64,000 bases of DNA, taken from positions 15,682 to 79,681 of the IMG/VR virus record IMGVR_UViG_3300017788_000014; one strand, 5' to 3'. Position 1 is the stretch's first letter, and each line of letters begins with the position of its first letter. This DNA is from a virus. The position numbers were made by a program, and so were the translations under genes. Shown here one piece after another: positions 1,440 through 33,585 of this stretch. Under the pieces are notes generated by a model. The model saw only the letters and a list, made by a program, of their open reading frames with translations, did not search any database and was not told the origin of the DNA.

Positions 1440-2189
1440 ATGACGATGTTGAAGAACAGCAAAAAGACCCGCGCGGCCAACGCGCATCTCGGACCAACCG
1501 ACGACAAGAGTGACGCCGCGATTGCCGGCAGGCTCAATGTCACTATTACAGCGCCCAACTTTAGGGAAATGTCGGTCGAAGTCGTCGGCGCAACACCGAT
1601 GGTGCAACTGGCGTTTGGCGAAAAGGCACGCAACGCCATGCGCGAAAAGCAGGCGGCGGGCTCGACCGCCAAAAGGGGTAAGCGAGAAGCCAAGGACTTC
1701 GAGGCTGCATTTGAGCAGGCCATCCACCGCAGCCGCGAAGGCTGGTGCGGTATTCCAGCCGGCGCTGTGCGAGCGGCAATGATTCGCGCCTGCTCGCTCG
1801 TCGGTTTTGAGATGGTCAAGGCCAAGATGTGTCTGTTTATCCGCGGCGATGGCTACGACGCGGTTGAGGGCACGCCGCTGATTAGGATGTTCCGCGTGGA
1901 CGAGGACGGTAACGAAATTGCAGCAGAGCCGCATCACGTTGAACACATGGTGCACAACGCCAACGGTGTTGCCGATATTCGTGTTCGGGCCATATACGAC
2001 GAGGGTTGGCGCGCCCGCATTCGCGTGCGTTACGACGCGGATATCTTTACCGCAGACGAAATCACTAATCTGCTGCACCGCGCCGGCTTGCAGGTCGGCG
2101 TCGGAGAGGGCCGCCCGTTTTCTCCGAAGAGTTGCGGCATGGGTTGGGGTCAGTTCGACCTTGTTCTCGATAACAATAACAACGGCTGA
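1440..2189 (+). CDS. Cas7/RAMP-like (RRM-fold) putative RNA-binding protein associated with the pentamer array
   Basis: Motif order matches RAMP/Cas7 proteins: first strand SVEVVGATPMV, GIPAGAVRAAM (cf. iPgsslKGalR), C-terminal glycine-rich loop AGLQVGVGEGRP...GMGWGQF; fold inferred by eye. Confidence 0.65.
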   Translation: MTMLKNSKKTRAANAHLGPTDDKSDAAIAGRLNVTITAPNFREMSVEVVGATPMVQLAFGEKARNAMREKQAAGSTAKRGKREAKDFEAAFEQAIHRSREGWCGIPAGAVRAAMIRACSLVGFEMVKAKMCLFIRGDGYDAVEGTPLIRMFRVDEDGNEIAAEPHHVEHMVHNANGVADIRVRAIYDEGWRARIRVRYDADIFTADEITNLLHRAGLQVGVGEGRPFSPKSCGMGWGQFDLVLDNNNNG

Positions 2190-2191
2190 GT

Positions 2192-2650
2192 ATGCCAAAC
2201 AAGCAAGCAATTCGCGTAGAACTCGCGCAACTGCAAAAAGAACACGGCCTATTGCGAGCCGAAGACGTTGTAAATTTTGCGAGAAATGAAGATACCGCGC
2301 TTCATGGTGAATTTGAATGGGACGACTCTGAAGCCGCCCATCAATATCGACTCGCTCAGGCGCGAAAAATTATTCGGGTCAACGTGCAGATTTTGCCAAC
2401 TGGGCATGATAACGTTGTTGTGCCCGTATACGTATCACTCGCACAAGATCGCGATCAACCCGGCGGTGGTTATCGCCGACTTGTAGATGTTATGAGCGAC
2501 GAAGAGTTGCGTGCGCAACTTTTACAACAAGCGCTGACCGATTTTGAGCGCGTTGGGCGTCGATACCGCACGCTGAAAGAACTAGCCCCGATTTTTGAGG
2601 CGCTAGAACAAATTTCGCAAGTTATTCGTGCAGAATTAACTCGTGTGTAA
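2192..2650 (+). CDS. conserved phage hypothetical protein, partner of the RAMP-like gene
   Basis: 152 aa ORF starting 2 nt after the previous stop; motif LHGEFEWDDSEAAHQYRLAQARKII; ends 14 nt before the array. Confidence 0.8.
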   Translation: MPNKQAIRVELAQLQKEHGLLRAEDVVNFARNEDTALHGEFEWDDSEAAHQYRLAQARKIIRVNVQILPTGHDNVVVPVYVSLAQDRDQPGGGYRRLVDVMSDEELRAQLLQQALTDFERVGRRYRTLKELAPIFEALEQISQVIRAELTRV

Positions 2651-2664
2651 CTGCTTTTAAACAC

Positions 2665-3327
2665 GGCAGGCACGGCAGGGTGCGGAGAGGCAAGGGAGGC
2701 GCGCCGCGGGGCGGCAGGCAAGGCTGGGCGAGGCGCGGCAGGTGTGGTCAGGCTGGTCAAGGCATGTTGAGGTTTGCTCCGGTCTGCTCTGGCAGGCATG
2801 GCAGGGCCGGGCGAGGACAGGAATGGCGCGGTTGGGTATGGCGCGGTCGGGCTGGGTACGGCAGGCAAGGACAGGAACGTCACGGCGGGGCAGGGACTGC
2901 ACGGGCACGGCAGGCGAGGCGCGATATGGCGTGGTCAGGTCGGGACAGGCGAGGCAGGCATGGCGTGACAAGGTAGGGCTGGGTAGGGTCTGTCATGGCA
3001 GGGCAGGCACGGCACGGCGTGTCCCGGTAAGATCGGGCACGGCAGGCTTGGACGGGCAAGGCTCGGACGGTAAGGTAACGCTCGCAAGGGCATGGCATGG
3101 CAGGCTTGGTAGGGCACGGCCACGCTCGCCGCGGCACGACACGGCAGGCACGGCTAGTCATGGTCGGGTTTGTCCCGGAGAGGTCGGGCTGGGTACGGCA
3201 GGTTCGGCAAGGACGGCTGGTCACGGTGAGGCTCGTCGCGGCAGGCAGGGTACGGCGCGGTTTGGCGCGGCACGGTTTGGCTCGGCACGGCAGGAATGGC
3301 GCGGCGCGGCTCGGCAGGGACTGGCAA
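2665..3327 (+). repeat. array of GG(C/T)NN pentamers in 14 units delimited by GGCA; putative guide-like ncRNA array
   Basis: 5-nt periodicity (e.g. GGCAT GGCAG GGCCG GGCGA GGACA GGAAT GGCGC GGTTG GGTAT); GGCA delimiters at 2665, 2713, 2737, 2791, 2860, 2909, 2953, 3002, 3041, 3099, 3143, 3197, 3240, 3289. Confidence 0.9.
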
Positions 3328-3343
3328 AGCGCCGCTATTAAAA

Positions 3344-3376
3344 CAAACACACGTTGTGCAGCGTGTGTTTGCCTTT
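3344..3376 (+). terminator. stem-loop closing the array
   Basis: CAAACACACG (3344-3353) pairs with CGTGTGTTTG (3362-3371), followed by CCTTT. Confidence 0.6.
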
Positions 3377-3403
3377 AAACTGCCGATTTGTTGTACTGGT
3401 GTT

Positions 3404-3661
3404 ATGAAACGATACCACGACGAAAAACACATCATCGAAAATCGGGCCAAAAAATACCGGCATATTAATGGCGGGTGGTTAGGCTATTCCGTGCCCAATA
3501 CCGGCGAACGACAACCTCACGCGCCAGAACCGGGACGCTACAGAAAAACATTACGTTGCGGCGGTTGTACCCGTGCGCGATGTCAGGTCTGTCATTCAAA
3601 CAAATATCCGAAACGTATTCCCACAAGGCGAGAACGCCAACAATGGCTCGAAAACGAGTAA
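3404..3661 (+). CDS. small Cys-rich hypothetical protein
   Basis: MKRYHDEKH...CGGCTRARCQVCH; ATG 3404. Confidence 0.6.
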   Translation: MKRYHDEKHIIENRAKKYRHINGGWLGYSVPNTGERQPHAPEPGRYRKTLRCGGCTRARCQVCHSNKYPKRIPTRRERQQWLENE

Positions 3662-4059
3662 ACGATTTTGGCGGAAGAAACGCCGCCGGCAACGGTAAGT
3701 GCCGCGCGCTTCTGGTCGGGCACAATCTAATCAGCATGCGCTGCATCTCGTGCAACAAACTCAACTACGTTGGGTTTCTTGAAACGCAACGCGCGGCAAA
3801 ACCGCGCTGTAATGCGTGCGGCGGCGGACTCTCTGAAATAGAAGAAAGTCACAAACGTCGAACTGGCTGCTCGTACAAAAGAATGGAGCGAGTAACCGCA
3901 GCCAATCTCGGCAAAAAACCATTTACGTGCGCAACCTGTAAAAAACATTTTAGATCGGCTGTCGCGCTTGGTTTGCACGTCAAAGAACAACATCCAGAAG
4001 CGCCGCCAATCGACGCGCACCAAATGGAACTTCGCGAGCGGTGGCGACGCACTCTTTAA
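3643..4059 (+). CDS. zinc-finger protein (CxxC ribbon plus C2H2 finger)
   Basis: CISC...CNAC and FTCATCKKHFRSAVALGLHVKEQH. Confidence 0.7.
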   Translation: MARKRVNDFGGRNAAGNGKCRALLVGHNLISMRCISCNKLNYVGFLETQRAAKPRCNACGGGLSEIEESHKRRTGCSYKRMERVTAANLGKKPFTCATCKKHFRSAVALGLHVKEQHPEAPPIDAHQMELRERWRRTL

Positions 4060-4088
4060 CCTTCAAGCAAAGAAAGATTTACACAACA

Positions 4089-4403
4089 ATGTCGAAGTAC
4101 GAAAAGCAAATTGAAACAGCAACCGCAAATCTTGCAGAAGCGGTATTTCACGAAACGCGCCTCGAAGACGGGCGTATCATGGAAAAGTTGGCCGCAATTG
4201 AACGCATCATGGCAGCCGGCGACAATCCACTAACTGGAAAAGCACATTCGTTTTCATCCGCTGAGGCGGTGGTCAATACCGATCCCGCATATCAGGATTA
4301 TCTCGCCGAGCAGCGCGAAGCAGTTCGCGCGCGTATTCTTGCGCGAGGGGCTTACGAGGCGGCGTTAGTTACCGCGCATCTTGCAGCGAAGGAGATGGCG
4401 TGA
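4089..4403 (+). CDS. hypothetical protein
   Basis: ORF MSKYEKQ..., overlaps next start. Confidence 0.7.
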   Translation: MSKYEKQIETATANLAEAVFHETRLEDGRIMEKLAAIERIMAAGDNPLTGKAHSFSSAEAVVNTDPAYQDYLAEQREAVRARILARGAYEAALVTAHLAAKEMA

Positions 4404-4834
4404 ACTTTTTCGAAGAAAACGACCAGCCGCAACAGCGCGTCGGCACTATTGAGCGGTTGCGCGATTTTGCACTGATTTGTTTCGATAAATTCCTCGCCGA
4501 GCGAGACGGCCGGCCGCAAATTTCAGATGTGGAAAAAATTTGCAGCGAATACTTGTCTGTCGGCGAAGTCGAAACAATTCTCAAAGAAAACTGCCAGTGC
4601 AATACTGACGGATTTTATGGTGTCGGCGGCGGCACAGTTGAAGAAGCCAACAAAAACATGGAAACGTTAATGACGGCGCTCATGCAGCGCATACTTTCAA
4701 ATGTCATTAGTGGCGGTGTGCGCGACGGCTGGTTAGACTGCGCGTTCGACTCCGAAAAAAATGATTTCTGTTTCAAGATTACCGACAAGGGTAAAGAAAT
4801 TGTCGAGCGAAGCGAATACAACGCAGACTCTTGA
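4400..4834 (+). CDS. hypothetical protein
   Basis: 144 aa ORF, GTGA overlap, upstream AAGGAG. Confidence 0.7.
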   Translation: MNFFEENDQPQQRVGTIERLRDFALICFDKFLAERDGRPQISDVEKICSEYLSVGEVETILKENCQCNTDGFYGVGGGTVEEANKNMETLMTALMQRILSNVISGGVRDGWLDCAFDSEKNDFCFKITDKGKEIVERSEYNADS

Positions 4835-5168
4835 CCATAATATTTACGCCGTACAGCAGATTTTCGAAGCCATCAAGGAATTCGAAAAAACGCAACGAGA
4901 ATTACGCGCATATGGCGCAAACGACACCGAACCCGACGGCGTTTTTCAGAATTTACTTTGGCGCGCTGTTTGTGGTGAGCAGCCCGAAATTCCGCGCAGC
5001 GAATTAGCGTGGGATTTGTATACGAACAGCATGGATTGCGAACAGGCGGCAAATAAATTGTACGACGCCGCCAAAGTTGTAGTAGACTTAATCGAAGCGT
5101 GCCCGGTTCGGCACCTGAAAGCGCTGCAGTATCGTTTAAAGTATTACTGCTGGAGGCTGAACATGTGA
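4761..5168 (+). CDS. hypothetical protein
   Basis: ORF in tightly packed operon; start uncertain. Confidence 0.6.
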   Translation: MISVSRLPTRVKKLSSEANTTQTLDHNIYAVQQIFEAIKEFEKTQRELRAYGANDTEPDGVFQNLLWRAVCGEQPEIPRSELAWDLYTNSMDCEQAANKLYDAAKVVVDLIEACPVRHLKALQYRLKYYCWRLNM

Positions 5169-5383
5169 ACCGGTTTTCTGGTCTATTAGGCGCAACCGTG
5201 CAACTGTTATTCGTCCAAGAAAAATTTTCTGCGGCGTTCGGTACCGTTCACGAAATTAGCCGACGACCGTGGGGGCAAGACGTCAGGACTTTTCTAAAAG
5301 TACAATTGCCCGACGGGCAATTCTGCGACTGCGTTTGTCCGCCCGATTATGTCGTTGTAGTAGACGAGAATAAACAGACGTAA
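5165..5383 (+). CDS. hypothetical protein
   Basis: GTG start overlapping previous stop, GGAGG upstream. Confidence 0.5.
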   Translation: MNRFSGLLGATVQLLFVQEKFSAAFGTVHEISRRPWGQDVRTFLKVQLPDGQFCDCVCPPDYVVVVDENKQT

Positions 5384-5392
5384 AGCAGCGCG

Positions 5393-7315
5393 TCAGTACG
5401 AAAAATACTGCCCGCTCATTTCGTCGTCACTCCAGTCTTCAATCGGCGTTTCAGCCGCTGCGAAGCGTTCTGAAACCCGACCCAAACCGGCTAGCGCAGC
5501 AAAATTCGGCCACGCGTCGTTTACGTGCCACAACGCGGCGGCGCCAATGTTCACCGCCTGCGCAAAATCGTCTGTCAGTAGCGTGTTGCGCGTAATTGTG
5601 TAAATGTCGCCGCCAAGCCGTGATTCTGTTTTGTTTTCAACCAAAGCGAGAAAATCCGACACCAGCCCCGGCGAATCCTGCGACGTCCAGTCGTATTGAA
5701 AAAATTGCATTTGCCGCAGTTTAATCGCCTGACAGGTGTAAAGCAGTGATCGCGTTTTGTCGAGGCTGTAGTGCGCACGATGATTCAGCGCTGTGGGTGG
5801 TTTGTACACCAACAAGTCCTGAGTGGCTGACCGTACGAGCCGCATGGCCAACACGCGCTCCAAATTAAATCCCGCCTGAACCATGACTGTTTCGCGAACC
5901 GTGCCGGCGCCGGTATAGTCGTGCGCAACAAAATCGCAATTGAACATTCGCGACCATTTCATGCACTCGACGGCCTCGGATAAATGATCGCCAGCCATCA
6001 ACAATCGTTTCGCCCAAAGAACGTCAATAAGGCCGTCGCTGCGAAAACCCATAACTGCCAGCACAGTAAAACTGATGCCTTCTTCTCCGCCGCCGCCCCA
6101 GTCAATCGCCAGCACACGATGCTTGTACTGGTCAAGATTTTCAAAACACTGCGGTTCGGGTTCTTTTTTGTTTTCCCACGGCAATGTACAGGCTGCCTTT
6201 AAATCCGTCTCGCTGATGAGTTTCTGCCCGGTGTCCATACTCTCGCCCATCACCTCGTTGTAAAACTGGGCTTGCGTCATGTTGCCAAAACCTTCGCGTT
6301 TTAACAACAGCGTCGACCACTTTTCGGGATCGGCGAAATGAAGCGGCAGAATGATCTGCGGTACGTGATAGCCGGCAAACTGCCAGCGCCGATCGGGATA
6401 GCGATGCACCCAGCGACCAAAACGCGGATTGATCGGTTTTTGACACTGCGCACAAACAGTGCCCGGCTGTTTCTCGCTGATATGCGGACTAAACGGCCCA
6501 ATCATTTTATCGAGATGGTATTCCACTGATGGAATGTTTTCAAAATTACACGACGTGCAGCGCACAAACCACTCCGCCTGCGACGAACGTTTAAACAATC
6601 CGTGAATCACGTTTTCGTGGGATTTTGGCGTCCCGGTAAAATATTGCACCGCGAACCGCGAATAACTCATCGTCTCTTGAATAATCGGAATATGATCCGG
6701 GTCCATATCCTGCACTTCGTCAATGCAGACACGATCTGCCGACACGCCGCGGATACGGTCGGCGTCCAATAGCGCAAACGAGAATAACATCATGGAGTTA
6801 TTCTTAAACGACCGCTGCAGCACAGAGTTTTCTGTCGTCGTGCCAGACCACAAAGACTTGACCGGCGACTGGTCAATAAAAGGTCGCACATAATTGTTGG
6901 AAAATCGGCGAATCTGCTCGTACAGAGGCGTAATAAACAGTGTTTTGAAAAACGGAATCGAGTTCGCTACAACCACGCCATGCGCCGCGAGTGACGTCGA
7001 TTTTGAAACCTGCCGGCCGGTGCACCAGACTTGATTTTTCGGCATCAGGCAGCGAAACAGGGGCGAAAACGGGTAGTGATTTTGCAATGTGTACGGCTTG
7101 CCGTTCAGATTCAACACAAGTGGTAAAATGGGTTCCAGCGACGGAAACGCCATTTTCTCCGCCAACAATTTCAAAATCACAGCCCGTTCTTGCACCGCTC
7201 GAAAATCATTAACGTCGACGGACGTTAGTTCGTTAAGCAAAGCATGCACTCCGGCTGTCGGAATGTCCTGCTTTGCCGATAGATGCGAGGTTTCTCGCAA
7301 AGTATGAGGTGCCAT
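5393..7315 (-). CDS. terL: phage terminase large subunit (GpA-like)
   Basis: Walker A-like GRQVSKST, Walker B VCIDEVQD, coupling motif GTPKS, CxxC pairs, RNase H-like VLAIDWGG and DDFAQA; start uncertain (ORF open to 7411). Confidence 0.85.
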   Translation of the reverse strand: MAPHTLRETSHLSAKQDIPTAGVHALLNELTSVDVNDFRAVQERAVILKLLAEKMAFPSLEPILPLVLNLNGKPYTLQNHYPFSPLFRCLMPKNQVWCTGRQVSKSTSLAAHGVVVANSIPFFKTLFITPLYEQIRRFSNNYVRPFIDQSPVKSLWSGTTTENSVLQRSFKNNSMMLFSFALLDADRIRGVSADRVCIDEVQDMDPDHIPIIQETMSYSRFAVQYFTGTPKSHENVIHGLFKRSSQAEWFVRCTSCNFENIPSVEYHLDKMIGPFSPHISEKQPGTVCAQCQKPINPRFGRWVHRYPDRRWQFAGYHVPQIILPLHFADPEKWSTLLLKREGFGNMTQAQFYNEVMGESMDTGQKLISETDLKAACTLPWENKKEPEPQCFENLDQYKHRVLAIDWGGGGEEGISFTVLAVMGFRSDGLIDVLWAKRLLMAGDHLSEAVECMKWSRMFNCDFVAHDYTGAGTVRETVMVQAGFNLERVLAMRLVRSATQDLLVYKPPTALNHRAHYSLDKTRSLLYTCQAIKLRQMQFFQYDWTSQDSPGLVSDFLALVENKTESRLGGDIYTITRNTLLTDDFAQAVNIGAAALWHVNDAWPNFAALAGLGRVSERFAAAETPIEDWSDDEMSGQYFSY

Positions 7316-14687: not shown

Positions 14688-15785
14688 ATGATGACTACAG
14701 CAACTCTCGACATTCCGACTCAACTCGTTTCCAATACTCCGACAGAATTTCCGACTACGCAGTCGGCTGTTGTTGAAAATACACCAATTCCGCCAAAACC
14801 GATCCGCAAAAAGCCCGCGCCAAAACATGATTTTCGAGACGGGCAGGGCCGCGTATTTGCGCACAAACACGCCCGCGGCGGCGGCTGGGTATCTGACCGA
14901 GCAAAAGTAGCCGAAAGCGTCTACATCGGCCCGAGATGCGGCGTCGGCGGAGAAGCGGTCGTCGAAGGTGATGTGCGCCTCGAAGGCCGCGCAAAAATTA
15001 GCGGCCGCGCCTGTGTGCGCGATTTTGTCGTACTCCGTAAAAACGCACAAATCTATGACCGCGCTGTTGTCGTGGGTAGCAGCATAGTAACCGACGACGC
15101 GGCTGTGTATGGCGAAGCCCGCATTGGCGGCAGATCAGAAATCAGTGGTGGCGCGCACGTACTCGGCAGCGCATTCGTTTGTGAATCGAATATCGGCGGA
15201 CAGACCGCTGTTTGGGGCGAAACCCTAATTATCAAAAGCACGCTAAGCGGTCACGGCACGCCGTTATCAAATAGTACCGCCGCCACACGTTTAAGAATTT
15301 CGGCCAGAAACAATCCGTGTTTATGCTTATTTAACTTTGGCCACGTGCAAGACTCACAAATATTCGGCTCGGGTTTTATTTACAATCGAGCCAAAATCAT
15401 AAACAGCCGAGTCAATTCCCCCAGCGGAGAATGGTTTGAAATTTTTGACAATGCGACTATTCTCCACGATTCGAGTATTACCACCAATTTCAGAATTGGC
15501 GGCAACACCGTGGCTATGCACGTATTTTTTTACAGTCCAAGTATGACCGTGTCGCCAATGACGGCGCCGATTACGTTAAATCGGTCACAGGTTTTTATTC
15601 GGCTCAGCGTCACAAACAACGACGAGTGTGCGCGGCTCACAGAAACGCCGACGACGGCAACGCAAAATCGCCCGCAGCAAGCAGCCGCGGTGCCGCCAAT
15701 TGCGCAAATTGCACCCACACCGAACAGTGCCGGGCCGGTGCAAATTCCCGGTTTTGGCGCTCGTCGCATCATTCGGGCAGACTGA
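14688..15785 (+). CDS. left-handed beta-helix (hexapeptide repeat) protein
   Basis: GGGWVSDRAKVAESVYIG followed by AxVxGx-type hexapeptide repeats. Confidence 0.75.
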   Translation: MMTTATLDIPTQLVSNTPTEFPTTQSAVVENTPIPPKPIRKKPAPKHDFRDGQGRVFAHKHARGGGWVSDRAKVAESVYIGPRCGVGGEAVVEGDVRLEGRAKISGRACVRDFVVLRKNAQIYDRAVVVGSSIVTDDAAVYGEARIGGRSEISGGAHVLGSAFVCESNIGGQTAVWGETLIIKSTLSGHGTPLSNSTAATRLRISARNNPCLCLFNFGHVQDSQIFGSGFIYNRAKIINSRVNSPSGEWFEIFDNATILHDSSITTNFRIGGNTVAMHVFFYSPSMTVSPMTAPITLNRSQVFIRLSVTNNDECARLTETPTTATQNRPQQAAAVPPIAQIAPTPNSAGPVQIPGFGARRIIRAD

Positions 15786-24732: not shown

Positions 24733-24803
24733 TGCCCGATGGTGTAACGGTAGCACAAGAGATTTTGGTTCTCTTTGTCTAGGTTCGAATCCTAGTCGGG
24801 CAT
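24733..24803 (+). tRNA. tRNA-Gln(UUG)
   Basis: Acceptor TGCCCGA/TCGGGCA (U1-A72), anticodon stem AGAGA/TCTCT with loop TTTTGGT, T-arm CTAGG-TTCGAAT-CCTAG; CCA not encoded. Confidence 0.93.
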
Positions 24804-32160: not shown

Positions 32161-33091
32161 ACGTGTAATTAAACTCTACACGGCAAAAAACGGACACGTC
32201 TGGTATTCTGTCGGCATTGGCCAGCCGACGGACTCCGGGCGCATTGTCGACAGTTTTTTGCTGTCATCTGTCGTGTCCGGCATGGGTTTATGTTTTCGAA
32301 TACTTGGTTTGCCGCAAAATGCTGAGTTGATTTGCGCCCTGTATTTTCGCAAAAGCAAAGGCGAGGTGCGCTATATCGATATTGCCGGGCCGAACATTTT
32401 AAACAACATCGACGAATTGAACGATCCCGCGCTAGTGTTGCAGCGCATGCGCAGTTCAAATTTGTCGTCGGCTAGTGGCGGCTGGCATCCGCTGTCGATG
32501 CAGGATTATCCTGTGTACGCCGCACTGGCGAAGAATTTACGGGCCGGATTCGTTTTTGACGAGTCTGCGCGCACTTATTTGCGATTGCACCCCGCCTATC
32601 GCGCGCTGAGTTTTATTCCCACCGTTTGCGAAAAAATGGCGGCGCAATTGATTACGACAATTGTCGATCCGCGCTGGTACGTCAATCGTTATCGACCGGA
32701 CTCGCCTCGAAAGTTGGAATTGTTTCTTGGACTCACGCCAAGTTCGCAGCAGCGGGTGTCCGATCCGAAAAAAATTATCACCAAAACGCGCGATTTACGG
32801 TGCGGCGCTGTTTTGTCGACATGGAAAACGGCGCGCCCCGACACCGTAAATATGTCGCTGCCGGCTAACTTTTTATATCGTATCTGGCGTAACTTCGGTG
32901 GCGGATGGCGGGGTGATCTGCGGGCTTCACAAGCGTTTGTTCGTTACTTTTGCGATAACTGGCTCGCGGCGTTAGATTCGCGCGTCGGCACGCATGACGG
33001 CTTGTTTTTACCCGGCGTATACTTTAAAACACCGGCCGAGCGCGAATCGTTTGTTGACCATATGCAACGCGACAATAAAAAGAGTTCCTGA
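32141..33091 (+). CDS. hypothetical protein with IS110/IS116 transposase C-terminal (Transposase_20)-like segment
   Basis: LSFIPTVCEKMAAQLITTIVDPRWY...SPRKLELFLGLTP resembles L.sipGvG...Aa.l.aei.d..rF...kla.y.GL.P. Confidence 0.5.
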   Translation: MSARADERVIKLYTAKNGHVWYSVGIGQPTDSGRIVDSFLLSSVVSGMGLCFRILGLPQNAELICALYFRKSKGEVRYIDIAGPNILNNIDELNDPALVLQRMRSSNLSSASGGWHPLSMQDYPVYAALAKNLRAGFVFDESARTYLRLHPAYRALSFIPTVCEKMAAQLITTIVDPRWYVNRYRPDSPRKLELFLGLTPSSQQRVSDPKKIITKTRDLRCGAVLSTWKTARPDTVNMSLPANFLYRIWRNFGGGWRGDLRASQAFVRYFCDNWLAALDSRVGTHDGLFLPGVYFKTPAERESFVDHMQRDNKKSS

Positions 33092-33585
33092 TGCTTGAAG
33101 TTGCGCTTACACTGCGTTTCAATCGTGTGTGTTTGGGTGCCGCCAAAAAACGACGGCACGGGCAGACTATATTTTGCTTTGATCGCGATCCGGGCCATCG
33201 CGTCATGTTTATGCCGGCCGCGTGGTTGGCCTGCATGCGGTACGCGGCAAAACTCGCCAATCGCCATCATACCGAAGTAAAAAAAATCGATTGGTGTCCG
33301 GTGATTGTCGGCGAGCCGCGCCCCGATTGGCGGCGCGGAATTGTAAGCGCGCCAACCGGTGGCGTACCCAAGAGTCATTACGCACTGCACGAGGCGTTTC
33401 GCCCCGGAGATACGATTATTGTGTACGTCGTGATACCGGAAACGATACCATTGCCGGATTTCACGCGGCTGGTCGAAATTATAGGAAAATACAAAGGTTT
33501 TTCGCCCTTCAACAATTCGCAAGAAAAATATGGCACCTTCGAGATCATCTCAATCGAACCGGTCAACGACTCCGGACGGGAATGA
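33091..33585 (+). CDS. small RAMP/RRM-like hypothetical protein
   Basis: LTLRFNRVCLG...HEAFRPGDTIIV...IGKYKGFSPF...KYGTFEI layout. Confidence 0.45.
   Translation: MLEVALTLRFNRVCLGAAKKRRHGQTIFCFDRDPGHRVMFMPAAWLACMRYAAKLANRHHTEVKKIDWCPVIVGEPRPDWRRGIVSAPTGGVPKSHYALHEAFRPGDTIIVYVVIPETIPLPDFTRLVEIIGKYKGFSPFNNSQEKYGTFEIISIEPVNDSGRE

Follow-up and report, generated by a model that had tools for sequence, protein, structure and literature searches.

Introduction

VIPR (Viral Interference Programmable Repeat) is a CRISPR-like RNA-guided DNA-binding system that was first described in 2026 (bioRxiv 10.64898/2026.04.26.720920 and 10.64898/2026.04.26.720927). Its protein component is Vipr, a RAMP protein that stands alone; in most cases a single accessory gene (vap) accompanies it, and the guide RNAs, the vrRNAs, are composed of alternating GGY/NN pentamers (10.64898/2026.04.26.720920). 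Structural work revealed that one Vipr protomer is bound per repeat, that the GGY triplet is sequestered while the NN dinucleotides are presented, and that every third base of the target DNA is skipped (10.64898/2026.04.26.720927). The system is active between the phage SUSP1 and a satellite (10.64898/2026.10.15.759431), and a language-model survey has recovered 99 VIPR-like clusters from sequence alone (10.64898/2026.10.21.760802). Here, a window of 64,000 nucleotides of viral DNA (the whole stretch analysed, positions 15,682 to 79,681 of the IMG/VR virus record IMGVR_UViG_3300017788_000014) is considered; near its start, a gene for a 249-aa protein, a gene for a 152-aa protein and a G-rich array of pentamers form a locus that is very probably a VIPR system of an uncultured freshwater phage.

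The best characterised relative is the type II system of SUSP1, which was located in NC_028808.2, with vipr corresponding to AVU07_agp039 and vap1 to agp038 and with pentamer arrays on both flanks. Other array variants include staggered arrays; according to the legend of fig. S18 of the discovery preprint, vrRNAs of this kind overlap by 1 nt, the end of one being the start of the next (10.64898/2026.04.26.720920).

The record that contains the window measures 79,681 bp, is estimated to be about 39% complete and comes from freshwater metagenomes; a large terminase, a helicase and an SbcC-like protein are encoded in it, as expected for a phage. A preliminary description of the DNA had recognised the 249-aa gene, the 152-aa gene 2 nt further on and the array 14 nt past the stop of the latter, had named VIPR as the system to which they may belong, and had concluded that, in that case, the locus would add a member to an existing class and would not represent a class of its own. 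All three parts are present in the sequence, and the suggested membership is supported by the RAMP fold, by a protein family in common with SUSP1 Vipr and by the arrays found at homologous loci. The published VIPR preprints also agree with the second half of the statement: the locus is a further example of a described class and adds an example, not a concept.

The 249-aa protein and its homology to Vipr

The AlphaFold2 model of the 249-aa protein (pLDDT 80.8) predicts a Cas7-type RAMP fold, with an RRM core, a glycine-rich loop and a thumb. A Foldseek search with this model listed exclusively Csm3, Cmr and Cas7 proteins (best E 6.5e-6; 80 matches at E<=0.001), and in VIA-align wide, an all-against-all aligner, matches 1 to 43 were all CRISPR RAMPs, the best being Csm3 9g9a_D with Z 10.3 and a root-mean-square deviation of 3.9 A over 151 residues. 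Sequence identity to the matched RAMP structures is 8-17%, and searches of Pfam and of the PDB sequences with the protein returned nothing. The preliminary description had called the protein Cas7/RAMP-like and had named structure prediction followed by Foldseek as the way to verify it; the Foldseek matches listed were all CRISPR RAMPs. The RAMP/Cas7 motifs that it had quoted are also present; most of their glycines do not vary among 32 homologues, nor do E223 and R225.

Profile comparisons connect the protein more closely with Vipr. It matches phrog_4652 (E 9e-15, profile positions 4-188 of 194), the same family that is matched by SUSP1 Vipr (E 1.4e-96) and by gp49 of the mycobacteriophage Donkeykong (E 1.7e-58). 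Alignment of a profile of the 32 homologues with SUSP1 Vipr by hhalign gave a probability of 79% and an E value of 1.5e-5 over 109 columns, pairing GVGEGRP with GVGDWRP of SUSP1 and the invariant R183 with the thumb residue R138. Of the five SUSP1 residues published as RNA contacts (H17, R138, D177, W178 and R179), three, namely R138, D177 and R179, align with R183, E223 and R225, all three being invariant in the 32 homologues. By these comparisons the protein is homologous to the experimentally characterised SUSP1 Vipr, and it is referred to below as Vipr. Its start is placed at the ATG at 1440, which the N-termini of the homologues favour over an upstream GTG at 1389.

A pentamer array with a regular register break

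The array that follows the two genes is about 670 nt long and contains 46% G. The autocorrelation of G at lag 5 is 0.52, compared with a mean of 0.00 (standard deviation 0.04, maximum 0.13) in 1000 shuffles. Units were counted by a register-tracking parse: G occupies position 1 in 134 of 138 units (97%) and position 2 in 119 (86%), C or T is found at position 3 in 121 (88%), and all 16 dinucleotides occur at positions 4-5. The G-rich array of GG(C/T)NN units with 5-nt periodicity that had been reported beforehand is therefore real, and it has the form by which VIPR loci are recognised, namely tandem GGY/NN (YNNGG) pentamers, at least four in number, adjacent to the gene and on the same strand. 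No second array of this type was found on either strand of the 79.7-kb record; Tandem Repeats Finder reported nothing beyond fragments with periods of 15, 24 or 25.

The parse also revealed a feature that is absent from the preliminary description. Every 3-14 units, about every 10, a 4-nt unit makes the register slip by -1; of 17 such units, 14 read GGCA and are directly followed by GG, the remaining three boundaries being GGGA or GGAC. The GGCA-GG boundaries split the array into about 14 segments of 24-69 nt. Since a GGCA directly before GG is equivalent to two pentamers with one common G, the layout fits the staggered arrangement as far as the fig. S18 legend describes it. Two of the segments, guides 4 and 11, have identical 21-nt 3' ends (GGTCGGGCTGGGTACGGCAGG at 2845-2865 and 3182-3202, read as GGTCG, GGCTG, GGTAC and GGCAG plus a final G), which suggests a duplication or recombination between guides.

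Conservation of the module

A single search recovered a family of 732 proteins at E<=1e-3, and 80 IMG/VR loci collected with the family profile were used for the counts given here. A pentamer array lies on the same strand and within 1.5 kb of the vipr homologue in 70 of the 80 loci, and such arrays are almost absent elsewhere in about 600 kb of sequence flanking these loci; a comparison of this kind had been proposed in the preliminary description, and its outcome supports the assignment of the locus to VIPR. A homologue of the 152-aa neighbour adjoins the vipr homologue in 72 of the 80 loci. The grammar of the arrays is conserved as well: of the steps in the 70 homologous arrays, 2994 measure 5 nt, 298 measure 4 nt and only 7 have another length, GGCA accounts for 250 of the 298 four-nt units, and successive shifts are separated by a median of 10 units.

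A guide with exact gapped matches to RusA genes

The guides were read by the published 1-nt-skip rule (NN?NN?NN). Guide 13, between 3244 and 3288, is the cleanest of the array, with GG in nine of nine units; its nine GGYNN units carry the dinucleotides AG AC GC TT GC AC TT TC AC and are followed by GGCA(G) up to 3293. In IMG/VR the resulting pattern, AGNACNGCNTTNGCNACNTTNTCNAC, is matched exactly at 68 places. About 60 of these sites are homologous to one another and lie in genes for RusA, a Holliday-junction resolvase of about 132 aa (PF05866, E 1e-20 to 1e-28). There the match is on the antisense strand of the codons for DVDNVAKAVL, and all eight skip bases fall on third positions of codons. 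Among the 68 matches, 38 different skip strings occur, and the local sequences are of 53 kinds. Beyond the guide on either side, the constant GGCA(G) units do not match the target, which fits the boundaries proposed for the guides.

Comparison patterns behaved differently. The reversed dinucleotide order of guide 13 (18 bases) had no match in IMG/VR, and guide 5 (18 bases) had one, consistent with chance; guide 6 (16 bases) had 28 scattered, unrelated matches, also consistent with chance, and scaling from these 28 gives an empirical chance level of about 1.75 matches for 18 bases. No exact IMG/VR match was found for guide 7 (18 bases), nor for guides 4 (26 bases) and 11 (20 bases). When the 68 loci were read with skips of 0, 2 or 3 nt, no match was obtained, but this set is biased by having been picked with the 1-nt-skip pattern. 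Target sites readable by the rule of the published system are thus found for this locus through guide 13, and RusA is a well-supported candidate target of this guide, not an established one.

The search for further pairs of guide and target gave negative results within the sets that were scanned. The other guides of the window scored nothing above shuffles against the 68 RusA loci, the guides of the 80 related arrays gave no further exact matches to them, and none of the related arrays contains a RusA guide like guide 13. No close homologue of this RusA was found in cultured phages. In the 79.7-kb record itself the best guide scored no better than shuffled guides, in line with the discovery paper, where no self-targeting is reported for VIPR guides (10.64898/2026.04.26.720920); RusA was not found in the record, about 39% complete as stated above.

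The pattern was also encountered in contigs of bacterial genomes, both in RusA genes of Maricaulaceae and relatives and in unrelated families; no host was assigned from these matches. Among the latter, the motif 'EPTM[DN]VENVA[KN]AVLYMASLPLDAN' occurs in diverse bacteria and 'VEKVANAVLP' in protease-like genes; judging by the motifs, the genes probably encode short-chain dehydrogenases and proteases. These cross-matches illustrate how codon-like guides can also hit peptide motifs in unrelated families.

Four contigs that contain a guide 13 match also have pentamer arrays of their own: L108 (4324-5648), L151 (7651-8005), L135 (3-62) and L120 (6449-6508). The match lies in the RusA family in L108, L151 and L135, and has unrelated flanks in L120. 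The presence of arrays on target contigs would fit VIPR-bearing phages that target one another.

The accessory gene

The product of the 152-aa gene belongs to phrog_15946 (E 2.4e-20), a family common to gp50 of Donkeykong and g33 of cyanophage Cy-LDV1. SUSP1 vap1 belongs instead to phrog_5926, and BLASTP revealed no similarity between the two proteins; family assignment and pairwise comparison both indicate that the accessory gene of the window is not vap1. It nevertheless occupies the place of the vap gene in the minimal VIPR locus, next to vipr. The AlphaFold2 model (pLDDT 92) predicts an N-terminal domain of three helices and a beta-hairpin, followed by a C-terminal helical hairpin. Foldseek found nothing in the PDB at E<=0.001, the weak matches being mostly winged-helix repressors, and in VIA-align wide the matches, with Z<=7, were confined to the C-terminal helical hairpin, a generic element. 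Searches of BFVD returned uncharacterised phage proteins only, those of the ESM Atlas only viral clusters annotated as 'hypothetical protein', and those of Pfam sub-threshold noise only. By analogy with what has been proposed for other vap products, a role in DNA binding is plausible.

Comparison with described systems

The closest layout is that of the staggered-array VIPR systems (10.64898/2026.04.26.720920), to the extent that it can be taken from the fig. S18 legend, on which the identity of layout depends. The window locus would have in common with them a Vipr RAMP that stands alone, a single accessory gene of small size, guides of GGY/NN pentamers, an offset of guides with a 1-nt overlap (here in the form of the GGCA-GG shift by -1), and a location in a phage without cas adaptation genes.

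With the type II system of SUSP1 the locus has in common the phrog_4652 family, the aligned glycine-rich loop GVG[DE]xRP and thumb arginine, a two-gene operon with flanking pentamer guides, and a 1-nt-skip reading that leads to exact matches in coding sequences with the skips at wobble positions. Conversely, each guide of SUSP1 is an RNA of its own, about 100 nt long and ending in a conserved 3' tail or pseudoknot, whereas those of the window abut and have no tail; SUSP1 Vipr has 195 aa, and the glycine-rich loop of the 249-aa protein has an extra SCGMGWG segment. The structured 3' tail on each vrRNA and the vap1 gene, which define type II (SUSP1-like) systems, are thus both missing from the window locus. 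The tail-less staggered array, the other vap family and the different glycine-rich loop are all within the diversity documented in the discovery paper, and one use of the locus is as a compact and clean example of the tail-less staggered type.

The backbone proteins of the Cas7 family (Csm3, Cmr4, Csf2 and Cas7) resemble Vipr in the RRM/RAMP fold, the glycine-rich loop, the thumb and the binding of one subunit per fixed RNA period; they differ in the length of this period, which is 6 nt compared with 5 nt in VIPR, where pairing with the target is moreover non-contiguous. CRISPR systems differ further in their gene content: a repeat-spacer array, Cas5, Cas6, Cas10, Cas3 and an adaptation module are all lacking from the window locus, so that the combination of repeat-spacer array and cas gene set that is typical of class 1 CRISPR-Cas is not found. 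No Cas1, Cas2 or CRISPR-like repeats were detected in the record, in agreement with the preliminary description, which had noted the lack of a repeat-spacer layout and of cas1 and cas2; a viral location without CRISPR array or adaptation genes is also what characterises VIPR.

Proposed mechanism

By analogy with SUSP1, a filament of Vipr would form on each vrRNA, with one protomer for each GGYNN unit, with GGY buried as a handle and the NN dinucleotides presented as the code; the string of dinucleotides would pair with double-stranded DNA, every third base being skipped, and transcription of the bound gene would be silenced. The preliminary description had arrived at one subunit per pentamer, with GGY as the handle and NN as the carrier of information, which is the same mechanism as the published one (10.64898/2026.04.26.720920 and 10.64898/2026.04.26.720927).

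As regards the delimitation of guides, the 4-nt GGCA would break the 5-nt register by -1, with neighbouring guides overlapping by one G as in the arrangement given by the preprint legend, and the anatomy of the array suggests that each break would end one filament and start the next. For the phage of the window this would imply that the array is transcribed and processed, that a ribonucleoprotein is formed, that DNA and not RNA is targeted in this clade too, and that phages carrying RusA are affected: guide 13 is predicted to bind the region of RusA genes of other phages that encodes the active-site motif DVDNVAKAVL. Targeting of RusA in other phages would be in keeping with the involvement in conflicts between phages that has been published for VIPR, and the motif offers a concrete predicted target that would extend the idea of VIPR guides locking onto codon-conserved motifs in essential genes of rivals. 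The strongest form of the proposal is that guides are set purely by the register break, so that GGCA stops and starts filaments and one transcript yields about 14 guides without tail, ribozyme or nuclease, one of them silencing RusA of rivals and crippling their DNA maturation; taken as a whole, this is a tentative and rather doubtful suggestion. The main text of the VIPR preprints cited here mentions no processing by a GGCA register break and does not list RusA among the target classes.

Alternative explanations

Several observations weigh against the assignment or against parts of it. The SUSP1 residue W178, which stacks on G2, aligns with Gly224, and H17 is outside the region aligned by hhalign, so that the details of RNA recognition may differ from those of SUSP1. 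The vap family is not that of vap1 and has no significant match in the PDB. The architectures confirmed by small RNA sequencing in the discovery work are the ribozyme and single-guide ones, staggered arrays not being among them (10.64898/2026.04.26.720920). A clear target family was obtained for only one of the six guides scanned against IMG/VR (4, 5, 6, 7, 11 and 13), and two metagenome scans with guides 4 and 11 gave no match. The pattern of guide 13 amounts to the peptide V[DE][NK]VA[KN]AVL, and its occurrence in unrelated bacterial genes means that the match is to a peptide-like motif and not to one gene. The GC content of the target contigs is 61% and that of the window phage 53%, so a host common to both is unproven; finally, since the record is only about 39% complete, the phage may have a RusA gene of its own.

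Some of these points would be explained if the locus were VIPR by ancestry and its array no longer a working set of guides (decaying, or serving as a decoy or sponge), the RusA match being a relic or a coincidence. Many units of the array are indeed degenerate (GTCAA, GCTCC, GATAT and CGCTC among them), the three boundaries that depart from GGCA point in the same direction, and so do the five guides without a clear target. However, vipr and vap are intact and have kept their conserved residues, internal degeneracy of vrRNAs is frequent according to the methods of the discovery paper (10.64898/2026.04.26.720920), and the guide directed at RusA is precisely the cleanest one, with 68 matches against 0-1 for the comparison patterns; a defunct array is thus unlikely. 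Still less room is left for an orphan or degenerate CRISPR-Cas module, in which a type III or IV Cas7 would use crRNAs encoded elsewhere: Csm3, Cmr4 and Csf2 are the best structural matches, but the low identity to these structures, the lack of Cas1, Cas2 and repeat-spacer arrays in the record, the grouping of the protein by sequence with SUSP1 Vipr and the pentamer arrays adjoining its homologues make this explanation highly improbable.

A different possibility is that the G-rich tract is not a guide array at all and encodes a Gly/Arg-rich product, or is a low-complexity or G-quadruplex-forming spacer. Several open reading frames of 64-199 aa overlap it, as is expected of G-rich DNA poor in stop codons, but no one frame spans the tract, its period is 5 nt and not 3, with a shift by -1 about every 10 units, and a conserved GGY followed by a variable NN fits no codon pattern; moreover, the same grammar recurs beside Vipr homologues in 70 of 80 loci despite differing sequences. 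A coding or spacer function is hence scarcely credible, and the reading of the locus as a VIPR system with a guide array is retained for the features collected in Table 1.

Table 1. Position of the VIPR-like locus and its parts in the 64,000-nt window.
Feature	Position	Strand	Basis
vipr, 249-aa stand-alone RAMP (Cas7-like) protein	1440..2189	+	PHROG, hhalign, AlphaFold2 and fold searches
vap-like accessory gene, 152 aa	2192..2650	+	phrog_15946, conserved neighbour
Staggered vrRNA array, 138 GGYNN units, about 14 guides delimited by GGCA-GG	2665..3337	+	periodicity, unit parse
21-nt block GGTCGGGCTGGGTACGGCAGG, also at 3182-3202	2845..2865	+	read directly; visible in unit parse
Guide 13, predicted RusA-targeting guide	3244..3293	+	IMG/VR pattern matches
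12-bp hairpin 3' of array	3344..3371	+	fold computation

Organisation of the locus

The vap reading frame begins 2 nt after the stop of vipr, and the first GGCA of the array (2665) is 14 nt after the stop of vap; this anatomy suggests that vipr, vap and array are co-transcribed. No promoter- or terminator-like sites were found between the three parts, and no sigma-70-like promoter between 1000 and 3700. The hairpin that had been noticed after the array is present, and folds with a stem of 12 bp instead of the 10 bp first given and with a loop of 4 nt; the 66 nt of its context (3325-3390) fold with -18.6 kcal/mol (z -2.3). A terminator scan called it on the minus strand only, and since the U-tract on the plus strand is weak (3 U), a function as terminator of the array on that strand is not established.

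The closest relatives have 76-94% identity. In one run, a relative of about 85% identity was found to retain the genes and the downstream flank, but its contig does not align over the stretch of the array, which hints, though weakly, at turnover of the array; the observation is left out of the evidence.

Related loci in cultured phages

The same system appears to be present, unannotated, in phages that are cultured and tractable, such as mycobacteriophages of the genus Cheoctovirus and cyanophage Cy-LDV1. In Donkeykong, a Mycobacterium phage of this genus (NC_051648.1), the features in question are at 2495-2839, 2833-3579 and 3594-4049 of the stretch analysed; gp49 and gp50 are the homologues of Vipr and vap, and a pentamer array with GGCA boundaries, about 70 units long, overlaps gp48, which is annotated as 'hypothetical protein'. 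From these similarities, a VIPR system that has escaped annotation seems to lie beside the immunity region in Cheoctovirus mycobacteriophages. In Cy-LDV1 (BK059895.1) the order is Vipr homologue (4037-4663), array (4677-4871), vap homologue (4888-5469) and second array (5474-5629), and the VIPR-like locus lies between a region with a cI-like repressor and an excisionase.

Both phages resemble the window locus in the protein sequences (Donkeykong gp49/gp50 and Cy-LDV1 g34/g33, with protein identities of 33% and 46%), in the phrog_15946 family of vap and in the GGCA-delimited pentamer arrays. They differ from it in that the array is upstream of the genes in Donkeykong and on both sides of vap in Cy-LDV1, in that their arrays are shorter than that of the window, and in that both phages are temperate. 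The arrangement array-vap-array of Cy-LDV1 implies that the order of the parts varies within the clade.

Other features of the window

A reading frame of 164 aa at 33091-33585, considered as a possible second RAMP-like gene, has no PHROG match, its hhalign probability against the Vipr family profile is 1%, and no pentamer array was found nearby. An Rfam search of the DNA found only tRNA. One tRNA, for Thr (TGT), is at 1300-1372, on the same strand as vipr and 67 nt upstream of it, and could share a transcript with the VIPR operon; another, for Gln, is at 24733-24803.

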